Below, in pieces: positions 1,632-14,359 of a stretch of 64,000 bases of DNA. The stretch comes from Planctomycetota bacterium (GTDB lineage: Bacteria; Planctomycetota; Phycisphaerae; Phycisphaerales; Phycisphaeraceae), in the NCBI GenBank assembly GCA_039199695.1, contig JBCCST010000010.1, forward strand, positions 16,635-80,634. Direction: 5' to 3'. The position numbers and the translations under genes are program-made. The notes beneath the pieces are model-generated. The model was not told the DNA's origin and searched no databases. It saw nothing but the letters and a program-made list of their open reading frames with translations. Each line of letters begins with the position of its first letter. The stretch's first letter is position 1.

Positions 1632-2297
1632 TTAATCGCCGTCATTATCAAGCCGCGACATCCGGCCGAGGTACACGCGGTTGGGGTCGACCGAGCCTTT
1701 GAAACCCTCGGCGTTGTTGAAATATTCGGTGTGGACGCCGATGCCGTCGGTGGCGGTTTGGGTGCTCCAGTAGCGGATGCCGACGCGGTTGCCCTCGTCG
1801 TCGGTTTCCCACGCCAGGAAGATGACGCTGTGGCCGGACTTGCCGCGCCAAAACTGAAGGAAGTCGCCCGCCTGAGCGTCGTCGTGTTCCACCGCATAGC
1901 CGATGCCGAGTTGTTCCAAAGCGTAGACGCATTGGGTCTCGGCCGAGACTTCATTCGTGCCGTACCACTGGCGCTGGAAGGTTTTGATTTCTTCAAACGA
2001 TTTATCTCGGATCAGTCGGCTGCGTTTGGCGGCTTCCATGGCCACCGTGAACGTGATGCCCGAGCAGTAGGTGCCGTCGGCAGAGGTCTTCTTGAGGACG
2101 ACTTTCCCTTGGTGCCGGATGGTGTGCGGCACGCCGGTGCTTTCCCATTCGTAGCCGCCGCCGGTGGGCATGCGGTCGATGAGCTTGAGGACCATCGAAT
2201 TGACGGCGGCCTCGTCGGCGGCTGCCGGGGCGGCATTAATCGTCGCGGCCAAACAAAGAAGAACGCCGATTATCCATCGCCAAGGGCTGTTCTGCAT
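1632..2297 (-). CDS. Secreted NlpC/P60- or CHAP-like cysteine hydrolase, putative peptidoglycan endopeptidase
   Basis: ATG at 2297 with a GAGGAG RBS and a signal peptide (WIIGVLLCLAATINA-A). Cys motif GTYCSGITF and His motif GDFLQFW..SGHSVIF form a papain-like dyad. Confidence 0.6.
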   Translation of the reverse strand: MQNSPWRWIIGVLLCLAATINAAPAAADEAAVNSMVLKLIDRMPTGGGYEWESTGVPHTIRHQGKVVLKKTSADGTYCSGITFTVAMEAAKRSRLIRDKSFEEIKTFQRQWYGTNEVSAETQCVYALEQLGIGYAVEHDDAQAGDFLQFWRGKSGHSVIFLAWETDDEGNRVGIRYWSTQTATDGIGVHTEYFNNAEGFKGSVDPNRVYLGRMSRLDNDGD

Positions 2298-2421
2298 ATG
2301 GAACTCCTCGAGTAGTTGGAACAGATTGTAACCCGCTGGGTCGAGCTTCGGCCACGATTCAACCAACAATTTGGATTCGATGACTCTTCGCCAACCGCTA
2401 TCGCCCGCTAAACTATGGGCT

Positions 2422-3531
2422 ATGGCGATGGCTGAGTTGTTTGCCCGCACGATCGACCACTACCTCGAACCGATCCGGCCGTACCTGGCCGACTCGTCGG
2501 TGACCGAGGTGATGGTCAACGCGCCGGACGAGATATACGTCGAGCGCGACGGGCAACTCGTACTCACCGATGCTCGCTTCGACGACACCGAACGTTATGA
2601 AGCCGCCGTCAACAATATTCTGCAGTTCACCGGGAAATCGCTGGCCGACGAAGAAACCCTCGTCGACGCCCGGCTGCCGGACGGCTCACGCGTCCACGTG
2701 GCTAAGGCCCCTTGCGCGCGCCACGGCACCGTGATGAGCATCCGCAAGTTCAGCCGGATGATGCTCGATATCGATTGGCTAATCGAACTCGGCTCGCTGA
2801 CGACCCAAGCCCGCGACTTCTTGAAGGTCGCGGTGGTCGCCGAGCAAAACGTGCTCGTCGCCGGCGGCACGAGTTCGGGCAAGACCTCGCTGCTCAACGC
2901 GATGTCGGCGTTCATCCCGTCGGGCGAGCGCCTGGTCGTCATCGAAGACTCCGCTGAGCTGCAGCTCCAGAAAGACCACTTGGTGTCGTTGGAATCCAAA
3001 CCCGCCGACACGTTTGGCCGAGGCGCGATCGGCGTGCGCGACTTGTTCCGGTCTTCGCTCCGCCTCCGCCCCGACCGGATCATCATCGGCGAGGTCCGCG
3101 GCGGTGAAGCCCTCGACATGATCCAGGCCATGACGTCCGGCCACGGCGGGTCGATGGGCACGCTCCACGCCAACACCCCCGCCGACGCGCTCAACCGACT
3201 CGAAACCATGGCGCTCATGTCCAAAGTCGAGCTGCCGCTGCACGCGCTGCGTAGCCAAGTCAGTTCGGCGATCGACTTGGTCGTACAGATGTCCCGACAG
3301 ATCGGCGGCCGGCGGCTGGTCACCCACATCAGCGAGGTCTTGCCTCTGGGCGACCATAACTATTACCAACTCCGCGATATCTTCACGATGAAACAAGTCG
3401 ACGACGATGACGGAGGTAAGGCCATGTGGCTGACCTGGACCGGCCAAGAATCCGTGCTGGCCGGGCGACTTGATGCCGATCAACAAGCGGCCGCATCTCC
3501 GGCGGTTCGCGCGATCTTTGGTCTGGATTGA
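2422..3531 (+). CDS. cpaF: Tad pilus assembly ATPase CpaF/TadA, short copy 1
   Basis: Walker A GGTSSGKT, Asp box VIEDSAELQL, Walker B PDRIIIGEVRG and His box GHGGSMGTLHAN. Confidence 0.9.
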   Translation: MAMAELFARTIDHYLEPIRPYLADSSVTEVMVNAPDEIYVERDGQLVLTDARFDDTERYEAAVNNILQFTGKSLADEETLVDARLPDGSRVHVAKAPCARHGTVMSIRKFSRMMLDIDWLIELGSLTTQARDFLKVAVVAEQNVLVAGGTSSGKTSLLNAMSAFIPSGERLVVIEDSAELQLQKDHLVSLESKPADTFGRGAIGVRDLFRSSLRLRPDRIIIGEVRGGEALDMIQAMTSGHGGSMGTLHANTPADALNRLETMALMSKVELPLHALRSQVSSAIDLVVQMSRQIGGRRLVTHISEVLPLGDHNYYQLRDIFTMKQVDDDDGGKAMWLTWTGQESVLAGRLDADQQAAASPAVRAIFGLD

Positions 3532-3559
3532 AGCTGCGGGTTCCGATAAGATGGAGAAT

Positions 3560-3805
3560 ATGGACGTTAGCCGTTTGTCCGCCGAGCCACCAACCGACTC
3601 ATGCAAACACCGTATTTCGCGTATTTTACGGCGTTTTCGTCGAAAATGGCGTCGAGACGGTGAGCGCGGAGCTACCCTGTTGGAGTGGCTATTGCTGCTC
3701 GCGGCCGTCGCCCTGCCGAGTTACTTTATAATTCAGGTTGGCTTAGCGACGCTTTTTGCCCACTACCGTCTGGTCACCACAATCAACGGCCTGCCGCTGC
3801 CGTGA
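3560..3805 (+). CDS. Flp/TadE-like prepilin
   Basis: Basic leader followed by ERG^ATLLEW (Glu at +5) and a hydrophobic helix. GGAG RBS before ATG 3560. Confidence 0.65.
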   Translation: MDVSRLSAEPPTDSCKHRISRILRRFRRKWRRDGERGATLLEWLLLLAAVALPSYFIIQVGLATLFAHYRLVTTINGLPLP

Positions 3806-3911
3806 CCCGTACGGGCTTACGCTCCACCCAACCACCCCGGCCTTTGAACCGGCCGACGCCCCACTACACGGGGCAATTCCCCACCGCCCCTTCGCCTCCG
3901 AGGCCTTTGTC

Positions 3912-4151
3912 ATGAAGAAGAAGACCCTGACTCTGATTCGAACATCTCGGCGCATCCTAAAGACGCTCCATCGCGACGAACGCGGGGCCGAGGGCCTCGA
4001 GAAGCTTCTGATCGTGGCCGCCATCGTCTTGCCGCTGCTCGGGCTACTCATCCTCTTCCGCCAGTCGTTGGGTGACTGGGTCGTGGGTGAATGGGATGAC
4101 GTCCGAGACTCGGCCGAGGGTGACCTGCCCGGCCCGTCCAACACGCCGTGA
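3912..4151 (+). CDS. Flp-type (type IVc) pilin
   Basis: 79 aa: basic leader, RDERG^AEGLEK (Glu at +5), hydrophobic segment and short acidic tail. Confidence 0.75.
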   Translation: MKKKTLTLIRTSRRILKTLHRDERGAEGLEKLLIVAAIVLPLLGLLILFRQSLGDWVVGEWDDVRDSAEGDLPGPSNTP

Positions 4152-4210
4152 CCACCGGATCGATTGAGCATGAGCATCACGGCAGATATTTCCGACGCGG
4201 GTGATGATTC

Positions 4211-4783
4211 TTGACCGCGACCCCGTGGATCATGTACGTCCTGCTGATCGGGGTGGTCATCGTAGCCGCGGTGACGGATCTCCGGACAACCTTGGTACCC
4301 AATCGGCTGACCTACCCCGCGATTCTCGCCGGGTTGATTATTTGGCCCGTGGCCGGGTTTATCGTCAAAGACGGAGGCTTGGCGATCGAATGGGGCCAAG
4401 CGTCTTGGCTCGGCATGCTCAGCGGGCTGATTCCCTTTGCGTTGTTGGTGATGACCGCCGGGCTGGGCGGGGGCGACATGAAACTCATGGCCGCGGTCGG
4501 GGCGTTGTCCGCCTCGTGGGAGGTGGTCCTGAGCACGACGATTTACGCGCTGGTCGTCTCTGTGTTCATGGCGGTGTTTGTCATGATCCGCAAAGGCGTG
4601 GTGAAGCAGACCCTCAGCCGAGTGTTTTCGGCGGCGCTCCTGGCCTCGGCTCGGGTGAAAACCGACCTGCCCAAAGACAGCCCGACGGTCGCGTTCGCCG
4701 CGGCGGTGGCGGTCGGCGCCGTCGTGGCCGGGGCCGAGCAAATGGTCGGCTGGGACTCGCCGTGGCGTGCATTCAGCCCGTAG
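4211..4783 (+). CDS. cpaA: Prepilin peptidase CpaA/TadV (A24 family, no methylase domain)
   Basis: Catalytic Asp motifs AVTDLRTTLVPN and GLGGGDMKL, with multiple TM helices. Confidence 0.85.
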   Translation: MTATPWIMYVLLIGVVIVAAVTDLRTTLVPNRLTYPAILAGLIIWPVAGFIVKDGGLAIEWGQASWLGMLSGLIPFALLVMTAGLGGGDMKLMAAVGALSASWEVVLSTTIYALVVSVFMAVFVMIRKGVVKQTLSRVFSAALLASARVKTDLPKDSPTVAFAAAVAVGAVVAGAEQMVGWDSPWRAFSP

Positions 4784-4856
4784 GCCGGACCGCCGGCTTG
4801 CCTAAAACCCCAATGTGCAATAGCCCGCACGATTTACGCGTTTTGCGGGTAAAATA

Positions 4857-7421
4857 ATGGACCCCATGCCCGACCCCGAAACCCCCGGCCCCGCCAACTC
4901 CGCCGTCACGACCTTGAGCCTCAAACCGGGCGATCAAGTCGATGCTTTTACCATCGTCGACACCATCGCGACGACCGGCTCGGCCGTGGTTTTCAAAGCC
5001 CACGACGCCTTGCTCGATCGCCACGTCGCGATCAAACAGATCATCCTCGGCCATGAAGATTCCGACGAAGCCCTGCGCAAACGCATCCGCGACGAAGCCG
5101 CGATCCACAAACGCGTTTCGACGTCGCAACCCAAACACCTGATCCAATTCATCGACGCCGTGGACGACCCGCGGGGGCTGATGCTCGTCGGCGAGTATTA
5201 CCCGTCGACCTCGCTCGAAGACCTCTTGGCCAAGACCACCGCCCCGCTCGACGAACGCCAAGCGCTCGGCATCGTCGCAGCCACCGCCAAGGGCCTCGAA
5301 GCGATCCACGGCGCGGGCGTGGTCCACCGCGACCTCAAGCCGAGCAACATCCTGCTCGGCGAGGACGGCGGGCTGAAGATCTGCGACTTCGGCCTCTCGG
5401 CGTTGATCGAGTCGCAAGACTCGCTCTCGCTCGGCTCGGTCCGCTACATGGCCCCCGAGTTGCTCAAATCCGAGACCGCCGACGGACGCGCCGACCTCTA
5501 CTCGCTGGGCATCATCGCCTACGAGATGCTCGCGGGGCGAGCGAACTTCGACGTGGCTTTCCGCAATGTGTTGCGTGACCAGCGCAACCAGGCGATGCGT
5601 TGGATGAAGTGGCACACCAACCTCCGCGTGTCCGCGCCGCTGCTCGACGACTACCTGCCCGATCTGCCGCCCCACCTGGTGCAACTCGTGGCCCGGATGA
5701 TGGACAAGGACCAGGCCCGCCGCGTCGGCACCGCGGAGGACGTGATCGACGCCATCCGCCGACACTTCACCGGCGACGGCCCGGATACCGATCTGTCTCC
5801 GCGACGCAGCATCGACCACCCCGGCATGGGTCCCGCCACCACCAGCACCCCGGGCGACACCACGGAGTTGCCGAGCACGAGCAAACTCCCGCTGATGCTG
5901 GGGGGCTTCCTGCTGTTCTGGGTGGTAGTCTTCGGCGTGCTTTTCGTGATCAACGATCAGAAGAAAAAATCCGCCTACAACCAAAAACTGGCCGACGCCA
6001 ACGCCTTGATCGACGAGGGCATTGATCGCTACGACGAAGGCGATTACAACGGGTCCCTCGAAAACTACCAAGCCGTGCTCGCGGTTTGGCCCGAAGAGAG
6101 CGAAGTCGCCCGGAATGCCCAACTCGGCGTCTGGAAAGCCCAGGGCCGTATCGCGTTTGCTGAGGCCCGATACGACGATGCGGTTGCCTTTTTCGAGCAA
6201 TACAAAGACGGGGGTGGCAGTGCGGTGACCGTCGATACCCTGATCCTCGAAGCAAAAGACAACGAGGCTTTTGCCCAGATCGATCAGACGGTGCTCGAAG
6301 CGATCGAAACGGGCGAGTTCACCGAAGCGCAACAAACCGTCAAAGAAGCCCGCGAACAAAACTGGACCGACGGCCAAGTCGCTCGACTGGACGAACTCGA
6401 CACGCTTATCGACGAACGCCGAGCCGAGGTACTGGCCGCCGAGCGCATCGCCGAGGCCCGGCGTCTGGTGGAGGCCGGCGACCGCCCCGCGGCCATCGAA
6501 GTTTTAGAAGATTTGGCCGGGTTGCCCGAAGAAGGCCAGACACTCCTGACCGAGTTACGGGCGGACGTGGCCTACGACAACGCGATCGCGGAAGGCGAAG
6601 AAGCCCTCCGCACCGGCCGACTCGGCGAAGCGGTAGACGCGTGGCGGGCGGCCTTGGCCCTCCGCCCCGACGAAGCACTCGAATCCCGGATCGCCCGCGT
6701 CGAGGCCCGCCGCCTGGTCGCGGAAGCCGCCAAGCTGTTCGACAACGGCGAGTTTGACGCCGCCGAAATCCGCATCGCCGCGGCGCTCGACCAAGACCCC
6801 GAAAACGTCGACGCGCTGCGTCTGCAGCAGCAGATCGCGGTCAAGACCGAGCTCGCCATCATCGAACGGCGAGGCGACGCGGCCCTGGCCGCCGGTAACC
6901 TGAGCGGCGCGATCACCGCTTATGAAGAAGGCCTGGGACTGGCCCCGGATTACCAGGCGCTGGTCCAAAAGCTCAACCGCGTGCGGGTACGCCAAAATCT
7001 CGATAGCGCCCGTGCCGCGATCAACGACGGCAAACTCGATCAGGCCGACGCTTTCCTGAAAGACGCCCAACTCATCGACCCGGACAACACCGACGTGGCC
7101 GAACTGTTGGCCACCCTCGATACGCAGCGCCGCTACCGGGACCTGATCACTCAGGCCGCCGAGGCCCGCGCCATCCCCGATTTCGGCCGGGCCAAGCGCC
7201 TCTACCGCGAGGCCAAAGAACTCGTGCCCGGCGACGAGATCGACAAGCTGATCGAACAACTCGACTTCGACAACTTCCTCGCTCAGGCCCGCGCTTTGAT
7301 CGCCAAGGGCGAACTCGCCGCCGCCCGGGGCATGTTGCAACAGGCCCGCCGCATCGACTTCACCCCCGAACTTGCCAAGCTCCTCGAAGAAGCCGAGGGC
7401 ACCCCGCCGGCCAGCAAGTAA
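4857..7421 (+). CDS. Transmembrane Hanks-type Ser/Thr protein kinase with C-terminal TPR-like repeats
   Basis: Motifs VAIK, HRDLKPSNILL, DFG, YMAPE and DLYSLG, then a single TM (LMLGGFLLFWVVVFGVLFVI) and about 480 aa of TPR-like helical repeats. Confidence 0.9.
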   Translation: MDPMPDPETPGPANSAVTTLSLKPGDQVDAFTIVDTIATTGSAVVFKAHDALLDRHVAIKQIILGHEDSDEALRKRIRDEAAIHKRVSTSQPKHLIQFIDAVDDPRGLMLVGEYYPSTSLEDLLAKTTAPLDERQALGIVAATAKGLEAIHGAGVVHRDLKPSNILLGEDGGLKICDFGLSALIESQDSLSLGSVRYMAPELLKSETADGRADLYSLGIIAYEMLAGRANFDVAFRNVLRDQRNQAMRWMKWHTNLRVSAPLLDDYLPDLPPHLVQLVARMMDKDQARRVGTAEDVIDAIRRHFTGDGPDTDLSPRRSIDHPGMGPATTSTPGDTTELPSTSKLPLMLGGFLLFWVVVFGVLFVINDQKKKSAYNQKLADANALIDEGIDRYDEGDYNGSLENYQAVLAVWPEESEVARNAQLGVWKAQGRIAFAEARYDDAVAFFEQYKDGGGSAVTVDTLILEAKDNEAFAQIDQTVLEAIETGEFTEAQQTVKEAREQNWTDGQVARLDELDTLIDERRAEVLAAERIAEARRLVEAGDRPAAIEVLEDLAGLPEEGQTLLTELRADVAYDNAIAEGEEALRTGRLGEAVDAWRAALALRPDEALESRIARVEARRLVAEAAKLFDNGEFDAAEIRIAAALDQDPENVDALRLQQQIAVKTELAIIERRGDAALAAGNLSGAITAYEEGLGLAPDYQALVQKLNRVRVRQNLDSARAAINDGKLDQADAFLKDAQLIDPDNTDVAELLATLDTQRRYRDLITQAAEARAIPDFGRAKRLYREAKELVPGDEIDKLIEQLDFDNFLAQARALIAKGELAAARGMLQQARRIDFTPELAKLLEEAEGTPPASK

Positions 7422-7506
7422 GTCCGCCCGCCGGCCACGCTCGGCCACACCACCCCACCGCCCCGGAATACACCCACTCCGGATTCGCGTACGGAACACC
7501 ATCCCC

Positions 7507-8340
7507 ATGAGTCAGATGCCCGGTTCTCCCACCGTCCCTTTGCCCAAAAAGCCCGGCCAGGCCGGCGCGACCACACCCGGTGCTCCCCCGGCCAGTCCGA
7601 AGCTCGTGGGTTTGGCGCTACTGATCGCGTTGATCGCGGTGGTGTTGGTCAACCTCTATATCCTTGGCGTCAAAAAGGCGGCCGAGGAAGGCGAGTACCG
7701 GTTCTTCCGGCTGGTGGTCGCCAAAGACGTGGGACAAACTTTGGAACTCGAAGACGTCCGCCTCGTCGGCGTCCCCGAAAGTTTCCGCGATGCGTTCCGT
7801 GACGTTGTCGAACCCAACAGCCAGGGCCAGCCCCTGCGGTTGGGCGATCCGTTTACCCGCCGGGCCGAGGCGGGCGAGCCGCTGACCACGCGCATGTTCG
7901 ACGACCTCACCGGCGACGCCTCCCGCCGGCTGATCACCGAAGGCTTCCGCGGCGTGTCGTTGCCGGTGGTGTCGAAGCTGCTCCCTGACCCGCTCAAGTC
8001 CGAAATGCGGGTGGACATCCTCGCCCCCGTCCGCACGACCGGCGGGCGGCAGGAAATCATGCCCGTGATGGAAAATGTCCGCGTGGTCAGCGTGGGCTCG
8101 CGCACGATCGTCGATGAACAATCCGGCGGCCGATCCGCGGGCAACTTCGAAACTCTCACGGTCGAAGTCCGCCCAGGTGAAGCGGTGCTGCTCGAAGAGA
8201 TCACGCAAGAAGTCCAGAAGACCGGCGTGTACCGTGTCCTGCTGCGTTCCCCGGATGATCAACGCCCGACTTTCATCCCCGAAGGCGGGCTCAATCCCGA
8301 TATCCTCGAACGCTACGGACTACAAGCCGCTTCGCGGTAG
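7507..8340 (+). CDS. cpaB: Flp pilus assembly protein CpaB/RcpC (SAF domain)
   Basis: N-terminal TM, SAF-like segment (VVAKDVGQTLELEDV) and CpaB-type segment (GFRGVSLPV..MRVDIL..VMENVRVVSVG..TLTVEV). Confidence 0.75.
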   Translation: MSQMPGSPTVPLPKKPGQAGATTPGAPPASPKLVGLALLIALIAVVLVNLYILGVKKAAEEGEYRFFRLVVAKDVGQTLELEDVRLVGVPESFRDAFRDVVEPNSQGQPLRLGDPFTRRAEAGEPLTTRMFDDLTGDASRRLITEGFRGVSLPVVSKLLPDPLKSEMRVDILAPVRTTGGRQEIMPVMENVRVVSVGSRTIVDEQSGGRSAGNFETLTVEVRPGEAVLLEEITQEVQKTGVYRVLLRSPDDQRPTFIPEGGLNPDILERYGLQAASR

Positions 8341-8355
8341 ACGCCGCTTCGCGGC

Positions 8356-8453
8356 AGTGATGAGTACTCAGTGAACAGTAATGAGTACGAGTCGCCGACT
8401 AATCCCGAAAACTTGTACCTTCACTCGTCACTATTCACTGTGCACTCATCACT
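8356..8453. repeat. Heptamer-unit inverted repeat element 1 (AGTGATG-type)
   Basis: Left arm AGTGATG AGTACTC AGTGAAC AGTAATG AGT. The reverse complement of the right arm (8423-8453) is AGTGATG AGTGCAC AGTGAAT AGTGACG AGT, matching at 26/31 positions. Confidence 0.85.
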
Positions 8454-8463
8454 CTGACTTGAA

Positions 8464-10329
8464 ATGCAATTCTGGCTCTACGACCACAGCAACAACCTCC
8501 GTCATACCCTCGAGGCCGAGGGCGACCCGATCAACATCGGGCGTGACGATGGCTGTGACATCGTGCTCAAGAGCGCCTTCGTCGCCCCGCGGCACGCCCG
8601 CATCTTGCGCAAGGGCAACCGCATGGTAGTCGAAGCGCTCAGTCAGGCCGGCACCCGCGTCGCCAACCGCGAGGTGCAAAAAGGCGCGCCGATGCTCGTG
8701 GACTTCGGCGACGAGATCCAGATCGGCCAGTTCACCATCGCCATCGTCGGCCGCAACGGCGAGGCCGTCGACACCCGCACCGCCGACGAAGATCGCCTGC
8801 AGGCCCGGCTGATGGAACTCGAACAAGAAGTCCACGCCGAGTTGCTCGAACGCATGAACCTCCGCGTCACGGGGAGCATCCGCAAGGACGACGACGCGTT
8901 CCTCAACCAAGTCCTCTTCCACCTCGACGAAGTGTTGGAGTCTCGCGTCAATGCGCTCGAGCCGGGCATGATCCGACTGGCCTGCATGCACCACCTGCAC
9001 CGCCTGGTCACCGCGGAGGTGGTGCGGCAATGCCAGGGCAAAGTCCAGACCGAATACAAGTCCGGCGACGACCGCCTGCTCAACGCCGCGTTTGAAACGC
9101 AGATCACCGAACTGGTCACGTCGTTGGTCGACATGATGCCGTTGCTGTTCGACCCGTCGAGCGTCAGCGAAGACCTCGCGGTGGCCGAGGACTCTTTCGA
9201 CGAGTTGTTCGAGAAGGAATACCCCACGCTCGACCGCGAGGTGACGCGGTACATCGTCCAACGCACCGTCGCCAAAGACATCCAGGACATCATGCTCGGC
9301 CTCGGCCCGCTGCAAGACCTCCTGGAGATGCCGTCGGTCAGCGAGATCATGGTCGTCGGCAAAGACCGCATCTACATCGAAAAGAACGGCATCATTCAGC
9401 CGACCACGCGAACGTTTTTCTCCGACGACGTGTTGCTGTCGATCATCGAACGCATCCTCGCGCCCGTCGGCCGACGCGTCGACACGTCAACACCGCTGGT
9501 CGACGCCCGCCTCGCCGACGGCAGCCGGGTCAACGTGGTGATCCACCCCTTGTCGCTGGTCGGGCCCTGCATGACCATCCGCAAGTTCGGCTGGGTGCCG
9601 TTCACCATGGACGACCTGGTCGAGCGCGGCGCGATGAGTTCCAACGTCGCGCGGTTCCTGCAGGGCTGCATCGTCGGCCGATCCAACATCGTCATCGCCG
9701 GCGGTACCGGCTCGGGCAAGACCACCCTGCTCAACGTCTTGGGCGCCTACGCCCGGCCCAACGAACGGATCATCACCGTCGAAGAGTCGGCCGAGCTCCA
9801 ACTTCCCCAACCCCACGTCGTCAAACTCGAAGGCCGACCCGCCAACATCGAAGGAAAGGGGGCGTACAGCATCCGCGAACTCGTCCGCAACAGCCTGCGG
9901 ATGCGCCCCGACCGCATCATCGTGGGCGAGGTCCGCGGCCCGGAGGCCATGGACATGCTCCAGGCCATGAACACCGGCCACGACGGCTCGCTCTCGACCG
10001 TCCACGCCAACAACCCCCACGACGCGATGAAACGACTCGAAGCGTTGGTACTCATGGCCGTGGAGATGCCCATGCGGGCGATCCGCGAACAGATCGTCAC
10101 CGCCGTCGACCTCGTGGTTCAGGTCACCCGTTTCGCCTCCGGCCACCGCCGTGTCACCGCGATCTCCGAAGTGACCTCCATCGACCCCGAGACCGGCACC
10201 ATCCGCCTCGAAGACATCTTCACCCTCAAAGACCCCAAGCAACCCACCCTCCGCCACACTGGCTACATCCCCACGTTCGCCGAAGAAATGGTCGAACGCG
10301 GCGACTTCGACGTGGACGTTTTTCTCTAA
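8464..10329 (+). CDS. cpaF: FHA-domain-fused CpaF/TadA ATPase, copy 2
   Basis: N-terminal FHA fold ([25 protein letters not shown]), Walker A GGTGSGKT, Walker [12 protein letters not shown] and His box [12 protein letters not shown]. Confidence 0.9.
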
Positions 10330-10332
10330 ACC

Positions 10333-11184
10333 ATGCACAACCCGCCGCTGTTCATCCTGCTCAACGTCTGCGTCTTTGCCGCCGCGTACCTGCTCGTGCG
10401 CCACGGCAAAGAACCCGCCGTACGTTTCCGAGAACGTCAGGAACTCGGCTACGACCGGGTGCTGCGTCGGCAGCTCATGATGGAGATCGAGCCCCGGCAG
10501 GCCTTCACGATGGCGATGTCGGGCATCGCGGTCGCGGTGGTTTTCGCGTTTCTCCTGACGTTTAACCTCTTCGTTGCGGTGGTGTGCGGCGCGATCGCGT
10601 ATTTCATCCCGACGGTCGTGGTGCGGCACCTCGAATTCAAGCGCCGCAAGCAGCTGGAATCGCAACTGATCGACGGGCTCACCACGATCTCGGCCGGGGT
10701 CAAGGCCGGGTTGAACCTCGTACAATCGATGGAGATGCTCGTCGACAACCAGACCGGGCCGATCAAACAGGAGTTTGCCCAACTCCTCCGCGAGTATCAG
10801 ATGGGTCGCGACCTCAACCAAGCGATGCAATCGGCGGCCAATCGGATCGGCTCACCGTTGTACCGCCTGACCTTCACCGCGATCGAAATGCACCGGCTGC
10901 GTGGCGGCGACACGGGTGAAAGCATGGACCGGCTCGCCGAGGCCGTCCGTGAAATCAAGAAACTCGAAGGCAAGCTCGACGCGATCACCGCGCAGAGCCG
11001 GTCGCAGGCCTCGATGATGGCGGTGATGCCGTTTGTGTTCATCTTCATCCTCTACATCATCGATCCCGCGGGGATTCAGCTGCTGTTTACCGAGACCATC
11101 GGTCGGGTGCTTCTGCTGATCGCCGCGGCCTTGATCCTCGGGGCGTTTCTGTGGATCCGGAAAATCATGGCGGTGGATATCTAA
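10333..11184 (+). CDS. tadB: Tad inner-membrane platform protein TadB
   Basis: T2SSF-like segments (QLIDGLTTISAGVKAGLNL..GPIKQEF..GGDTGESMDRL) and position directly after cpaF. Confidence 0.85.
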   Translation: MHNPPLFILLNVCVFAAAYLLVRHGKEPAVRFRERQELGYDRVLRRQLMMEIEPRQAFTMAMSGIAVAVVFAFLLTFNLFVAVVCGAIAYFIPTVVVRHLEFKRRKQLESQLIDGLTTISAGVKAGLNLVQSMEMLVDNQTGPIKQEFAQLLREYQMGRDLNQAMQSAANRIGSPLYRLTFTAIEMHRLRGGDTGESMDRLAEAVREIKKLEGKLDAITAQSRSQASMMAVMPFVFIFILYIIDPAGIQLLFTETIGRVLLLIAAALILGAFLWIRKIMAVDI

Positions 11185-11187
11185 GCG

Positions 11188-12087
11188 ATGAGCCTCGAGC
11201 AGTTGTTTATCTCGGCGATCGTGTTTGCGGGCGTGTTCCTACCGATCTACGCGATCTTCCGCTACCCGGTGCCCACCGCACCGCCGGTGAACCGGCGGAT
11301 CGCCCGGGCGATGGGGGCCGATCGCGCCACGATCTTTGAGCAGCCGCTGCTCGCGCCGATCCTCAACTTTATCGTCGCGATCGCCAGCCGATTGAACCTG
11401 CCCAAAGTCCGGGCCGACATCCGACAAGACCTCGACGCGTCCGGAAACGCATCCGGCTACAGCGTCGAGCAGTATCTGAGCCTATGCGTATTGTCGGGGT
11501 TGACCGTAGCGTTGCTCGCGGGCTTCGGCGAGTTGTGGCTGGGCGGCGGGCTGCTCCTGATCGTGTTGCCGCTGGGGGCGGCGGGCGGGTTTTATGTGCC
11601 GTTGATCCTGCTGCACGGCGCACGCAACCGCCGGGTGATCCGTATTGCCAAGCAGTTGCCCTACACCCTTGATCTGATCGCGTTGGTGATGGCCGCTGGC
11701 TCGAGCTTCGGCGAAGCGGTCCAGACGCTGATCCGCGACAACCCCGAAGACGAACTCAACCAGGAACTCAAGATCGCGTTGTCGGAGATCGAGTACGGCT
11801 CGACCCGGGCGGCGGCGCTCAAAAACCTGGGCACGCGCATCCCGCTCGAAAGTCTCCGTAGCGTTATCGCCTCGGTCAACCAAAGCGAGAAGCTCGGCAC
11901 GCCCATGGCCGCCGTCCTCAAAGTCCAGGCCGACATGCTGCGGGCGCATCGCGGCGTGATCGCCGAGAAAAAATCCGCCTCGGCCAGCCTGCGCATCCTC
12001 GTGCCGTCGATGATGATTATGATTTCGGTGGTGGTCATCGTGTTCGCGCCGATGATCATCCGCTACATCAAAGGCGACTTGTTTTGA
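11188..12087 (+). CDS. tadC: Tad inner-membrane platform protein TadC
   Basis: QLPYTLDLIALVMAAGSSFGEA..EIEYG..EKLGTPMAAVL motifs typical of TadC. Confidence 0.85.
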   Translation: MSLEQLFISAIVFAGVFLPIYAIFRYPVPTAPPVNRRIARAMGADRATIFEQPLLAPILNFIVAIASRLNLPKVRADIRQDLDASGNASGYSVEQYLSLCVLSGLTVALLAGFGELWLGGGLLLIVLPLGAAGGFYVPLILLHGARNRRVIRIAKQLPYTLDLIALVMAAGSSFGEAVQTLIRDNPEDELNQELKIALSEIEYGSTRAAALKNLGTRIPLESLRSVIASVNQSEKLGTPMAAVLKVQADMLRAHRGVIAEKKSASASLRILVPSMMIMISVVVIVFAPMIIRYIKGDLF

Positions 12088-13061
12088 ATGCTCAACTCCT
12101 CGAAGTCACGATCACCGCCGGGCCGAGCGCCGGCCAGCGGATGCGGGTGAACCAGTCGCCGGCCAGCTTCGGCCGCGGGATGGACAACCCGCTGGTCATC
12201 GATCTGGCGACCGTGTCGCGGGTGCACGGCGAGCTGCGCTTTAAGGACGACCGCTGGGTGGTCGCCAACCTCTCCAAAAACGGCACGAAGCTTAACCACC
12301 GCTCAGTCGGCCGTAAGCCGCGGCCGCTGCGCGACGGCGACCACATCGTCGTCGGGAATCAACCCGTGATGTCGGTCGTGCTGCGCGAAGGCAACGGCGA
12401 GGGGCCAACGATCACGGAGGCCGCTGACGCGGCAGCAAATGACGTCGGCACCGCCAACGCGGCCCCGCCCCGGGCGGGGATGAGCCCACGGACCAAGCTG
12501 TGGCTGGCGATCATCGGGTTCTGGGTGGTGGTGTTCGGCGCGGCGTTTTTTGTGTCCAGCGGGGCCGACAACGGCGAGGCTCGGACCGGACCGGGCATTC
12601 CCATGTTGACCGACCGTCAGATCGCCGAAGCCATCCGGGCCCAACTTCCGGATCAGGAAGCCTCACCGCGCACGGCCGCGCAACACTTTGACGAGGCCGA
12701 GGCGTACTACGGCCTGATCAACGCCGACCCGCAAAACGCCTTCCGCGCGCTCTACGCCTACAAAACCGCCTTGTCCTACGCCTACGGCGATCGTTTCACC
12801 GACGACCGCGACGACTGGGGCGGTAAACCGGCGGCCGATCTCGCCATCGCTCAGAAACGCTACGGCGAACTCGAAGCCCAGCTGATCGCTGACGTCCAAC
12901 GTCTCTACAAAGATGCCCACGGCAAACTTATGGACCGGCGCTACAGCGAGGCTAGACTAGGGTTTGATAAAGTCTTTCGTCTATACAACGACCCGCAGAG
13001 CCCAATCTACCGCAACGCCCTGAAACAACGCGACCTCGCCCGGCAACGCCAAGACAACTGA
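12084..13061 (+). CDS. FHA domain-TM-helical (TPR-like) protein
   Basis: Canonical FHA residues (FGR, VSRVH, SKNGT), one TM ([19 protein letters not shown]) and a helical C-terminus. The TTG start overlaps the tadC stop. Confidence 0.85.
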
Positions 13062-13117: not shown

Positions 13118-14359
13118 ATGAACCGCCCCGCCACCGTAACCACCTCTGCCGCCGCTCCCGACGCAACCTCCGTGCCCGACACCGAGGGACACTTCGGCGC
13201 CTTCGGCGGCAGCTTCATCCCCGAGACGCTACATAAAGCCGTCGCCGAGCTCGGCGAGGTGTACGCCGTCGCGAAGGACGATCCTGCTTTTCAACAGCAG
13301 ATGACGGAACTCAACCGTGACTACATCGGCCGGGCCACGCCGCTGCAGTTCGCGCCACGCCTGACCGAAAAGGCTGGCGGCGCGCAAATCTGGATCAAGC
13401 GCGAAGACTTGGCCCACACCGGGGCGCACAAGATCAACAACGCTATCGGTCAGTGTCTGCTGACGATCCGCATGGGCAAGCATCGCATCATCGCCGAGAC
13501 CGGGGCCGGCCAGCACGGCGTCGCCACCGCCACCGCCGCCGCGAAGTTCGGCCTCGACTGCGAAGTCTTCATGGGCACCGAAGACATGCGCCGCCAACGC
13601 CCCAACGTACTGCGGATGCGGCTCATGGGAGCCAAAGTCACCGGCGTCGAATCGGGCAGCAAGACCCTCAAGGACGCGACCAACGCCGCGATGCGCGACT
13701 GGATGGCCACCAGCGAAAACACCCACTACACCATCGGGAGCGTCGTCGGACCCCACCCCTTCCCGATGATCGTACGCGACTTCCAATCGGTCATCGGCAA
13801 GGAAACCTATGGCCAATGCCTCGACCAGCTCGGCCGACTGCCGGATTGCATCACCGCGTGCGTCGGCGGCGGGTCGAACGCCGCGGGCATGTTCCACCCC
13901 TTCGCCACGAACCCCGACGCCCAAGACGTCAAACTCGTCGGCGTCGAGCCCGGCGGCGTCGGCACCGAGTTTGGCAAGCACGCTGCTTCGCTTTCCTACG
14001 GCGAACCGGGCGTCCTGCACGGCTCGCTCTCCTACGTCCTCCAAGACCACGACGGCCAAACCGCGCCGGTCCATTCGGTCTCCGCGGGCCTGGATTACCC
14101 GGGCGTCGGCCCCGAACACGCTTACTGGAAAGACTCGGGCCGGGTGACCTACGCCAGCGTGACGGATACCGAAGCCCTCGACGCTTTCCAACTCATGTCC
14201 AAGCTCGAAGGCATCCTGCCCGCGCTCGAATGCAGCCACGCCATGGCCCACACGCTCAAACTTGCGGCCGACATGCCGAAGGATCAGATCATCGTGATGA
14301 ACCTCAGCGGCCGCGGCGATAAAGACCTCGACGAGGTCGTCCGCGTCCTGAAGATGTGA
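13118..14359 (+). CDS. trpB: Tryptophan synthase beta chain
   Basis: [15 protein letters not shown] (PLP lysine), [15 protein letters not shown] and [13 protein letters not shown]. Confidence 0.97.

Follow-up and report, generated by a model that had tools for sequence, protein, structure and literature searches.

Organization of the Locus

The window analyzed here, a 64,000-nucleotide stretch of DNA on contig C10 of a Phycisphaeraceae metagenome-assembled genome (MAG; 3.65-Mb assembly, 92.9% complete) whose nearest relatives are other Phycisphaeraceae MAGs, contains at positions 2422-13061 a tight adherence (Tad)/Flp pilus locus into which a Hanks Ser/Thr kinase, two FHA-domain proteins and two CpaF-type motor ATPases are built. 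Ten intact plus-strand frames, which overlap or are spaced 4-125 bases apart, occupy positions 2371-13061 in the order cpaF1, flpA, flpB, cpaA, kinase-TM-TPR, cpaB-like, FHA-cpaF2, tadB, tadC and FHA-TM-helical, where TM stands for a transmembrane segment and TPR for tetratricopeptide repeats. Domains were called by Pfam and NCBIfam profile searches, and TM segments by a hydropathy scan. The gene list and gene order that a preliminary description of this DNA had given for 2422-13061 were found to be correct by both frames and profile searches. The arrangement is far beyond chance, and the same order occurs in approximately 35 other species.

The first gene, cpaF1 (2422-3531; longest frame from 2371), encodes an ATPase that matches T2SSE (2.9e-50) and TIGR03819 (5.6e-81). 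Two Flp-type prepilin genes follow. flpA (3551-3805) encodes 84 amino acids with a long basic leader, the cleavage site ERG/ATLLEW (Glu at +5) and one hydrophobic helix; it has no Pfam or NCBIfam match, and its assignment was read from the sequence motif, of which G/ATxLEW is kept in 9 orthologues. The 79-amino acid product of flpB (3912-4151) carries ERG/AEGLEK (Glu at +5), with G/AEGLEK invariant in 14 orthologues, and matches Flp1_like at E=0.003, which is under the cut-off. cpaA (4211-4783) encodes a polytopic A24 prepilin peptidase (Peptidase_A24, 1.2e-14) of 190 amino acids, the size of TadV/CpaA.

The kinase-TM-TPR gene (4857-7421) encodes 854 amino acids with a Pkinase domain (3.8e-49), TPR_2/14/19 matches and one TM segment at residues 341-369. 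Next to it lies a gene for a cpaB/rcpC-like periplasmic protein with one N-terminal TM anchor (7507-8340; longest frame from 7372); the true starts of cpaF1 and cpaB are likely to be 2422 and 7507, respectively. Two independent models recognize the CpaB-like protein, both below threshold: RcpC PF16976 at 22.4 bits and 1.2e-4 (cut-off 28.8), and TIGR03177 at 36.4 bits and 3e-9 (cut-off 71). The position of the gene and the N-terminal anchor of its product fit CpaB, and the protein has a weak collinear match to the CpaB of a paralogous locus described below, which itself passes the Pfam threshold (52 bits).

The second motor gene, FHA-cpaF2 (8464-10329), encodes 621 amino acids and matches FHA (8e-12), T2SSE (3.5e-56) and TIGR03819 (8.4e-96). 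Directly 3' of it are the adjacent inner-membrane platform genes tadB (10333-11184; T2SSF, 5.7e-16) and tadC (11188-12087; T2SSF, 3.8e-13), and the last gene, FHA-TM-helical (12084-13061), encodes a 325-amino acid protein with an FHA domain (2.4e-14) and a TM segment at 137-162. Every sizeable frame was assigned, and no secretin, ParA-like TadZ, TadD lipoprotein or TadG is encoded in the locus.

Conservation Across Planctomycetota

Relatives were scanned with one genome per species, which yielded 78 loci. Approximately 35 of these keep cpaF1-flpA-flpB-cpaA-kinase-cpaB-FHAcpaF2-tadB-tadC-FHA_TM-trpB wherever the contig is long enough; all of them are from Phycisphaeraceae/Phycisphaerales, the complete genome of the cultured isolate Poriferisphaera sp. 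WC338 being among them. Identity in these syntenic loci falls no lower than 66% for CpaF2 and approximately 31% for the kinase. In an even sample of the family, a full-length CpaF2 orthologue was present in 80 of 121 genomes. The kinase and FHA genes are thus conserved with the Tad genes in approximately 35 species; their non-conservation, which the preliminary description had named as telling against a phosphorylation-gated Tad machine, was not found. These data support the view that the Tad system includes the kinase and both FHA genes as integral, co-inherited parts.

A second, paralogous locus with a different gene order, the CpaF2 of which is approximately 40% identical, occurs in four family genomes. 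There, cpaA and cpaF1 stand on one side, followed by cpaB, FHA-cpaF, tadB, tadC, an FHA protein gene and a kinase gene; cpaA, cpaF1, cpaB, FHA-cpaF, tadB and tadC are found in all four loci, and the FHA protein was seen in one or more of them, with Pfam confirmation in locus L098. The periplasmic part of the paralogous-locus kinase consists of CarboxypepD_reg/PEGA domains in place of TPR. The kinase therefore persists through rearrangement and sensor-domain exchange, which speaks for functional coupling more strongly than synteny by itself would.

Sampling of 401 genomes from the phylum revealed full-length FHA-CpaF homologues in eight or more additional families. Among loci fetched from families other than that of the window, a Hanks kinase lies within 10 kb in 12 of 14, and the same holds for the paralogous second locus of the sister family f3 (L120). 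Approximately half of the loci that do not belong to the order have a detectable CpaF1-type ATPase next to the motor. A secretin-like gene adjoins cpaB in two related loci (L120 and L122). By tblastn, no kinase was found in the 10-kb flanks of the other-phylum CpaF loci among the top matches, except for two Fimbriiglobus loci, where the kinase is approximately 8 kb off and on the opposite strand.

Two observations concern the surroundings of the conserved genes. In a same-genus MAG (JBCDJW010000001), an 835-amino acid MscS/MscK-like mechanosensitive channel gene is inserted between cpaF2 and tadB on the opposite strand (L050:11907-14414), so that the locus tolerates interruption at this point; another relative (L051) has a gap of approximately 1.7 kb, also between cpaF2 and tadB. 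On the 3' side, trpB (13118-14359 in the window) is separated from the FHA-TM gene by 56 bases and keeps this position in nearly all family loci (66-91% identity); it is unusual for a housekeeping gene to stay so persistently beside a pilus operon.

Kinase and FHA Domains

The kinase comprises a Hanks Ser/Thr kinase domain (residues 1-310), a juxtamembrane linker, the TM segment at 341-369 and a TPR array of approximately 485 residues. Since there is a single TM segment, the kinase domain should be cytoplasmic and the TPR array periplasmic, a topology in agreement with the periplasmic TPR array of the preliminary description. Across 29 orthologues, VAIK (Lys57), HRD (157; HRDLKPSN loop), DFG (177) and APE (198) are conserved, although four of these orthologues read HLD. 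All catalytic motifs are kept, and the kinase is, as judged from these motifs, predicted to be catalytically intact.

Within the linker, approximately 10 residues before the TM segment, Thr335 (codon 5859-5861) is conserved in 28 of 29 orthologues and is followed by L/V/I at +3 in 28 and by Pro at +4 in 27 of them (T-x-x-[LVI]-P). The sister family retains this motif, as does one more distant locus. A hydrophobic residue at pT+3, that is, three residues after the phosphothreonine (pThr), is a common preference of FHA domains; because of this preference, Thr335 is proposed as a candidate docking site for FHA. A TM motif common to the kinase and the FHA-TM protein, FWVVVFG (E=0.001), is not kept in orthologues and was treated as chance.

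The FHA-TM protein consists of an FHA domain (residues 1-100), which the single TM segment places in the cytoplasm, a disordered linker, the TM segment at 137-162 and a six-helix TPR-like periplasmic domain of approximately 150 residues. Its FHA pocket residues G30, R31, S45, R46, H48, N66 and G67 are invariant in orthologues. The AlphaFold2 (AF2) model of this FHA domain has a predicted local distance difference test (pLDDT) score of 84.7, and its nearest structures are GarA/OdhI (E 4e-9), with the FHA domain of ArnA at rank 13. GarA and OdhI are pThr-dependent regulators and kinase substrates. The six helices of the periplasmic domain are modeled by AF2 with a pLDDT of 95.9, and a fold search with this domain against the PDB gave no significant match, the best being BamD at E 0.17.

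In the FHA domain of CpaF2 (residues 1-100), the Arg of GR is kept, whereas Ala takes the place of the Ser of SxxH in 35 of 35 orthologues and that of the Asn of NG in at least 90% of them. In Rad53-type FHA domains, contacts to the phosphate and the peptide backbone are made by the pocket Ser and Asn. VSR.H and the Asn are retained in the more distant FHA-CpaFs of planctomycetes, so the pocket loss is specific to the lineage of the window. The pThr, if read, is thus probably read by the FHA-TM protein rather than by CpaF2. With regard to the phosphorylation gating proposed in the preliminary description, only the FHA-TM protein has a canonical pocket, the motor FHA being degenerate (Ser to Ala, Asn to Ala), and the gating itself is putative. 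Both FHA domains also match Yop-YscD_cpl in the profile search.

Two Motor ATPases

The Walker A motif is intact in both ATPases, the closest solved relative of both is CpaF of Caulobacter crescentus, and both stay under the equivalog cut-off of TIGR03819 (8.4e-96 for CpaF2 and 5.6e-81 for CpaF1). CpaF1 (369-386 amino acids) has no N-terminal intrinsically disordered region (IDR) and no three-helix bundle; its Walker A motif, GGTSSGKT, is at residue 165 of the long frame, and it aligns to C. crescentus CpaF with 266 bits, from CpaF residue approximately 149 onward. In CpaF2, the FHA domain is followed by a conserved helical region of approximately 170 residues that is not disordered, then by a canonical CpaF N-terminal domain (NTD) and the ATPase with Walker A at residue 413, and the core scores 336 bits against C. 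crescentus CpaF structures.

A quick maximum-likelihood tree was built from 74 ATPase cores and two GspE-type outgroups, with support measured by the approximate likelihood ratio test (SH-aLRT) only. CpaF2 grouped with canonical CpaFs of many phyla in one clade (SH-aLRT 100), within which the CpaF2 proteins of kinase-encoding loci formed their own group of 30 (SH-aLRT 99). CpaF1-type proteins fell outside the canonical CpaF clade, and their sub-groups mirrored those of CpaF2: the main type of the family, the paralogous type with family f45, f56 with f31, and f85 with f9. These mirrored sub-clades indicate that the CpaF1/CpaF2 pair is old and co-inherited, with no recent duplication.

A myxobacterial Tad locus in a Polyangia MAG (JAXLYE010000009) also has a second CpaF1-type ATPase after tadC (L072:12937-14736), so that two-motor Tad loci are not confined to planctomycetes. 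This ATPase has a 215-amino acid N-terminal extension without a recognizable domain; a KilF-like FHA fusion was considered for it and rejected, as no FHA was detected.

Secretins and Minor Pilins Encoded Elsewhere

When all locus proteins were compared with the genome by tblastn, the locus proved to be its only CpaF/TadB/TadC system; the remaining T2SSE ATPases of the genome are GspE/PilB/PilT-like. The statement of the preliminary description that secretin and tadG are missing holds for the locus and fails for the organism, which has three secretins and, on contig C41, a tadE/tadG/tadF cassette. The genome search for a secretin that it had suggested was run, and the CpaC-type domain PF13629 was on none of the three proteins found. 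The first, on contig C2, is of the GspD type, contains one N0 and six Secretin_N domains, and is clustered with a GspE-like ATPase; the second, on contig C7, has STN, Secretin_N and Secretin domains and is near another ATPase. The third, on contig C27, is an orphan of 1087 amino acids with a long TPR-like N-terminal region, encoded among housekeeping genes. A dedicated RcpA/CpaC secretin is neither present in the locus nor seen to co-vary with it, in a genome that is 92.9% complete and in which such a gene may have been missed. For TadZ, a genome-wide profile search with PF16968 (TadZ_N) was uninformative, as the model was silent even in the Caulobacter control.

The orphan TPR-secretin on C27 is the obvious, though putative, candidate for the channel. 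As a dedicated channel it was rejected, since it is near-universal, including in locus-free genomes, and so shows no specific link. A relation between the TPR array of the kinase and the TPR-like N-terminal region of this secretin was also rejected: no similarity was found, and a weak Amuc_1098 match was generic to TPR. Other frames resemble parts of the orphan secretin. A 1085-amino acid YfbK-like von Willebrand factor A (vWA) protein of the genome of the window (contig C103:337-3594, L105; vWF_A, VWA, and YfbK_C at 3e-63) is 59% identical to residues 265-642, which looks like a shared N-terminal module. In two family genomes (G074, contig C41, and G009, contig C16), a frame of approximately 245 amino acids, located approximately 5 kb upstream of cpaF1 (L103:6294-6908 and L104:16049-16675), resembles residues 560-769 (37-39% identity), which is the N-domain region without the pore domain.

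The minor-pilin cassette on contig C41, found by a genome search for TadE, lies on the minus strand in the order tadE-tadG-tadF and encodes a TadE-like protein of 306 amino acids, a TadG-like protein of 655 amino acids (PF13400 at 32.8 bits, above the cut-off) and a second TadE-like protein. Of the 121 family genomes, 77 have both the TadG-like gene and the CpaF2 orthologue and 38 have neither, with three genomes having only the one and three only the other (Fisher p=2.6e-24). The three TadG-only genomes still carry cpaF1, which suggests assembly breaks. In many genera (e.g., G053:C14, G014:C7 and G020:C46), the TadG-like gene stands between cpaF1 and cpaF2 within the locus, and so the minor-pilin cassette has, on the evidence of these gene positions, evidently moved out of the locus in the genus of the window. 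The locus is therefore part of the system only, and the minor pilins (TadE/TadG/TadF-like) are encoded in trans.

Other Features of the Locus and Its Flank

In the gap between cpaB and FHA-cpaF2, a plus-strand hairpin of approximately 100 nucleotides (8356-8453) has a minimum free energy of -47.6 kcal/mol (z = -4.76), a value reached by 0 of 200 shuffles. It could split the transcript into two segments, or it could be a processing or stability element. A scan for promoters and terminators found sites no more frequent than in shuffled sequence. The divergent neighbor of the locus (1632-2450, minus strand) encodes a secreted protein with a probable start at 2297 and no Pfam match. This protein (1632-2297) was considered as a part of the system and rejected, as it has no counterpart beside the locus in any of the 78 related loci.

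A Proposed Kinase/FHA-Licensed Two-Motor Pilus and Its Alternatives

We propose that the locus is probably the core operon of a planctomycete-specific Tad/Flp (type IVc) subtype, a two-motor pilus licensed by a kinase and an FHA protein. Phosphorylation gating is putative here, as is the contact sensing suggested by the preliminary description, and phospho-licensed assembly is the most economical reading. The periplasmic TPR array would report the state of the envelope or of assembly to the kinase, which would then autophosphorylate on Thr335 in its T-x-x-L/V/I-P motif and/or phosphorylate parts of the machine. The canonical FHA domain of the FHA-TM protein would dock on that phosphothreonine, and docking would gather the kinase, the FHA-TM protein and the platform or motor, and thereby license pilus assembly. 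Such licensing would be the job that TadZ/CpaE does in classical systems, done by a different route. The degenerate FHA domain of the motor may serve as a phospho-independent interaction module, the two motors may divide labor, for example between extension and retraction, and the pilus would cross the outer membrane via a secretin encoded elsewhere.

Several observations weigh against this reading. The channel that it calls for is not pointed to by distribution, as the orphan secretin is present in 115 of the 121 family genomes irrespective of the locus (p=0.41). No PP2C phosphatase is encoded in the locus, and the single PP2C_2 gene of the genome is on contig C75. The CpaB assignment consists of sub-threshold matches, and the motor FHA is, as judged from its pocket, unlikely to be a conventional pThr reader. 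The Thr335 motif is missing from the PEGA-type kinases of the paralogous loci, and hence is not universal to the class, and in three distant FHA-CpaF loci (family f9) neither a kinase nor tadB/C was found by tblastn.

A broader form of the proposal is more tentative: the locus may represent a distinct, old planctomycete Tad class, in which a sensor kinase and a membrane FHA reader replace the licensing and positioning functions of TadZ via a juxtamembrane pThr-x-x-L/V/I-P, and in which two co-evolving motor lineages split extension and retraction. If true, this TadZ-replacing phospho-switch would make the system the first Tad system with an identified phospho-switch and would point to the upstream kinase logic that is missing from Kil-type machines.

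The alternative that survives best, although we consider it unlikely, is that the FHA domains and TPR arrays are structural parts of a scaffold rather than of a switch, with the kinase adding little or no regulation; the FHA domains would then be phospho-independent, as in YscD/PrgH of the type III secretion system (T3SS), and the TPR arrays would replace TadD/TadZ functions. The loss of the CpaF2 pocket, the Yop-YscD_cpl matches of both FHA domains and the lack of a phosphatase in the locus are all consistent with a scaffold, and periplasmic TPR-like helical arrays, the fold of pilotins (PilF/TadD) and BamD, point weakly in the same direction. However, the kinase keeps all its catalytic motifs throughout the family and outside it, a sign that catalysis is under selection, the seven pocket residues of the FHA-TM protein (G, R, S, R, H, N and G) do not vary, and the nearest structures of this FHA domain are pThr-dependent FHA regulators.

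It is less probable still that no surface pilus is made, and that the locus encodes a short periplasmic pseudopilus (an endopilus or piston like that of the type II secretion system, T2SS) or a machine confined to the inner membrane and periplasm. The absence of any secretin from the locus and of any that co-varies with it would fit such a machine, as would the placement of two of the genomic secretins in their own GspD-type and STN-type clusters. Yet the locus encodes a CpaB/RcpC-like protein, and CpaB/RcpC of classical systems couples to a secretin (PMC12307814); in addition, the TadG-like minor pilin co-varies with the locus, a secretin-like gene stands beside cpaB in L120 and L122, and the genome offers the orphan secretin.

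A Kil-like weapon, which would kill prey or competitors in a contact-dependent manner when the kinase is triggered by cell contact, is highly improbable: although the common architecture (FHA-CpaF fusion, extra FHA proteins and no TadD; PMC8460266) and the contact-triggered kinase/FHA cascade of the Pseudomonas aeruginosa H1 type VI secretion system (H1-T6SS) give it some footing, the locus and its flanks contain no genes for effectors, toxins or immunity proteins, the secreted protein next to it lacks both a Pfam match and a counterpart beside the 78 related loci, Kil works with one ATPase and a short secretin of its own where the locus has two ATPases and none, and planctomycete CpaF2 is its own clade in the tree. 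The contact-dependent antagonism suggested by the preliminary description is accordingly unsupported, as effector genes are lacking and the neighboring putative hydrolase is non-syntenic in every relative.

A kinase/FHA-licensed pilus would matter for several reasons. Tad pili function in adhesion, surface sensing, and predation in Myxococcus and Bdellovibrio, and with regard to the signaling of FHA-decorated Tad machines, reviews to 2025 call FHA proteins 'promising candidates' and name no kinase. Here, a kinase is in the operon, is co-inherited across the phylum and is present in cultured strains with closed genomes (e.g., Poriferisphaera sp. WC338), and hence the question is directly testable. 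That a canonical CpaF is constantly paired with a second, old ATPase lineage also challenges the view of Tad as driven by one bifunctional motor. The locus also provides a first functional handle on pili in Phycisphaerae, a group whose cell biology is little studied.

Comparison with Known Systems

Fusions of FHA to CpaF are already known, as the 'class III' CpaF with the architecture FHA-IDR-3HB-NTD-CAD (Yen et al. 2025, PMC12019362) and, in the Kil system of Myxococcus, as KilF (PMC8460266). A full-text literature search turned up no account of a planctomycete Tad locus with a kinase and two motors built into it. Membrane kinases with periplasmic TPR arrays were reported to be common in Planctomycetota, with no mention of pili (PMC11032199), and tad genes of Bdellovibrio were reported near FHA and TPR genes (bioRxiv 10.64898/2026.07.08.737194).

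Kil is a Tad-like contact-dependent killing apparatus of Myxococcus xanthus with FHA-rich kil clusters (Seef et al. 2021, PMC8460266). The remark of the preliminary description that Kil loci encode FHA proteins was borne out, KilF being an FHA-CpaF fusion and the kil clusters being FHA-rich (PMC8460266). The Kil authors postulated an upstream cascade by analogy with PpkA/Fha1 of the T6SS and mention no kinase in the main text (PMC8460266), and the upstream cascade or kinase of FHA-decorated Tad systems was still called unknown in 2025 (PMC12428579; also PMC10433427). The comparison between Kil and the locus covered architecture: both fuse FHA to a CpaF-type motor and have further FHA proteins, both have CpaA, CpaB, a TadB/C-type platform and Flp-type pilins, the genes of both are split over more than one locus, and both are without TadD, with Kil additionally being without TadG and RcpB. 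In contrast, the Kil machine comprises a single ATPase and KilC, a short secretin of its own, whereas the locus has two ATPases and no secretin; a built-in Hanks kinase is found in the locus, and the motor FHA of the locus is degenerate.

CpaF2 has an N-terminal FHA domain, as the class III CpaF does, and a place in the canonical CpaF clade. The class III linker between FHA and NTD is disordered, whereas CpaF2 has a conserved helical region of approximately 170 residues in this position and has its pocket Ser and Asn replaced. Classical Tad systems use one bifunctional motor, in contrast to the locus, which has a second, divergent ATPase.

A parallel, by analogy of mechanism only, is the H1-T6SS of P. 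aeruginosa (PpkA/PppA/Fha1/TagQRST), for which a contact-triggered kinase/FHA cascade is known, as cited in PMC8460266. Both it and the locus encode a single-pass Hanks kinase with a periplasmic sensor, and an FHA protein, within the cluster of an envelope-spanning nanomachine, the assembly of which the two proteins would, on paper, license. The machines themselves are unrelated, one being a T6SS and the other a type IV filament; the H1-T6SS has a dedicated PP2C phosphatase and the locus has none, and the FHA protein of the locus differs in being membrane-anchored with a periplasmic domain. The archaellum of Sulfolobus, with the FHA protein ArnA, ArnB and the kinases ArnC and ArnD (PMC12852372), resembles the locus in that Ser/Thr kinases and an FHA protein act on a type IV filament. 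The Arn proteins, however, are soluble and act on the levels of archaellum components; those of the locus are membrane parts encoded in the assembly operon.

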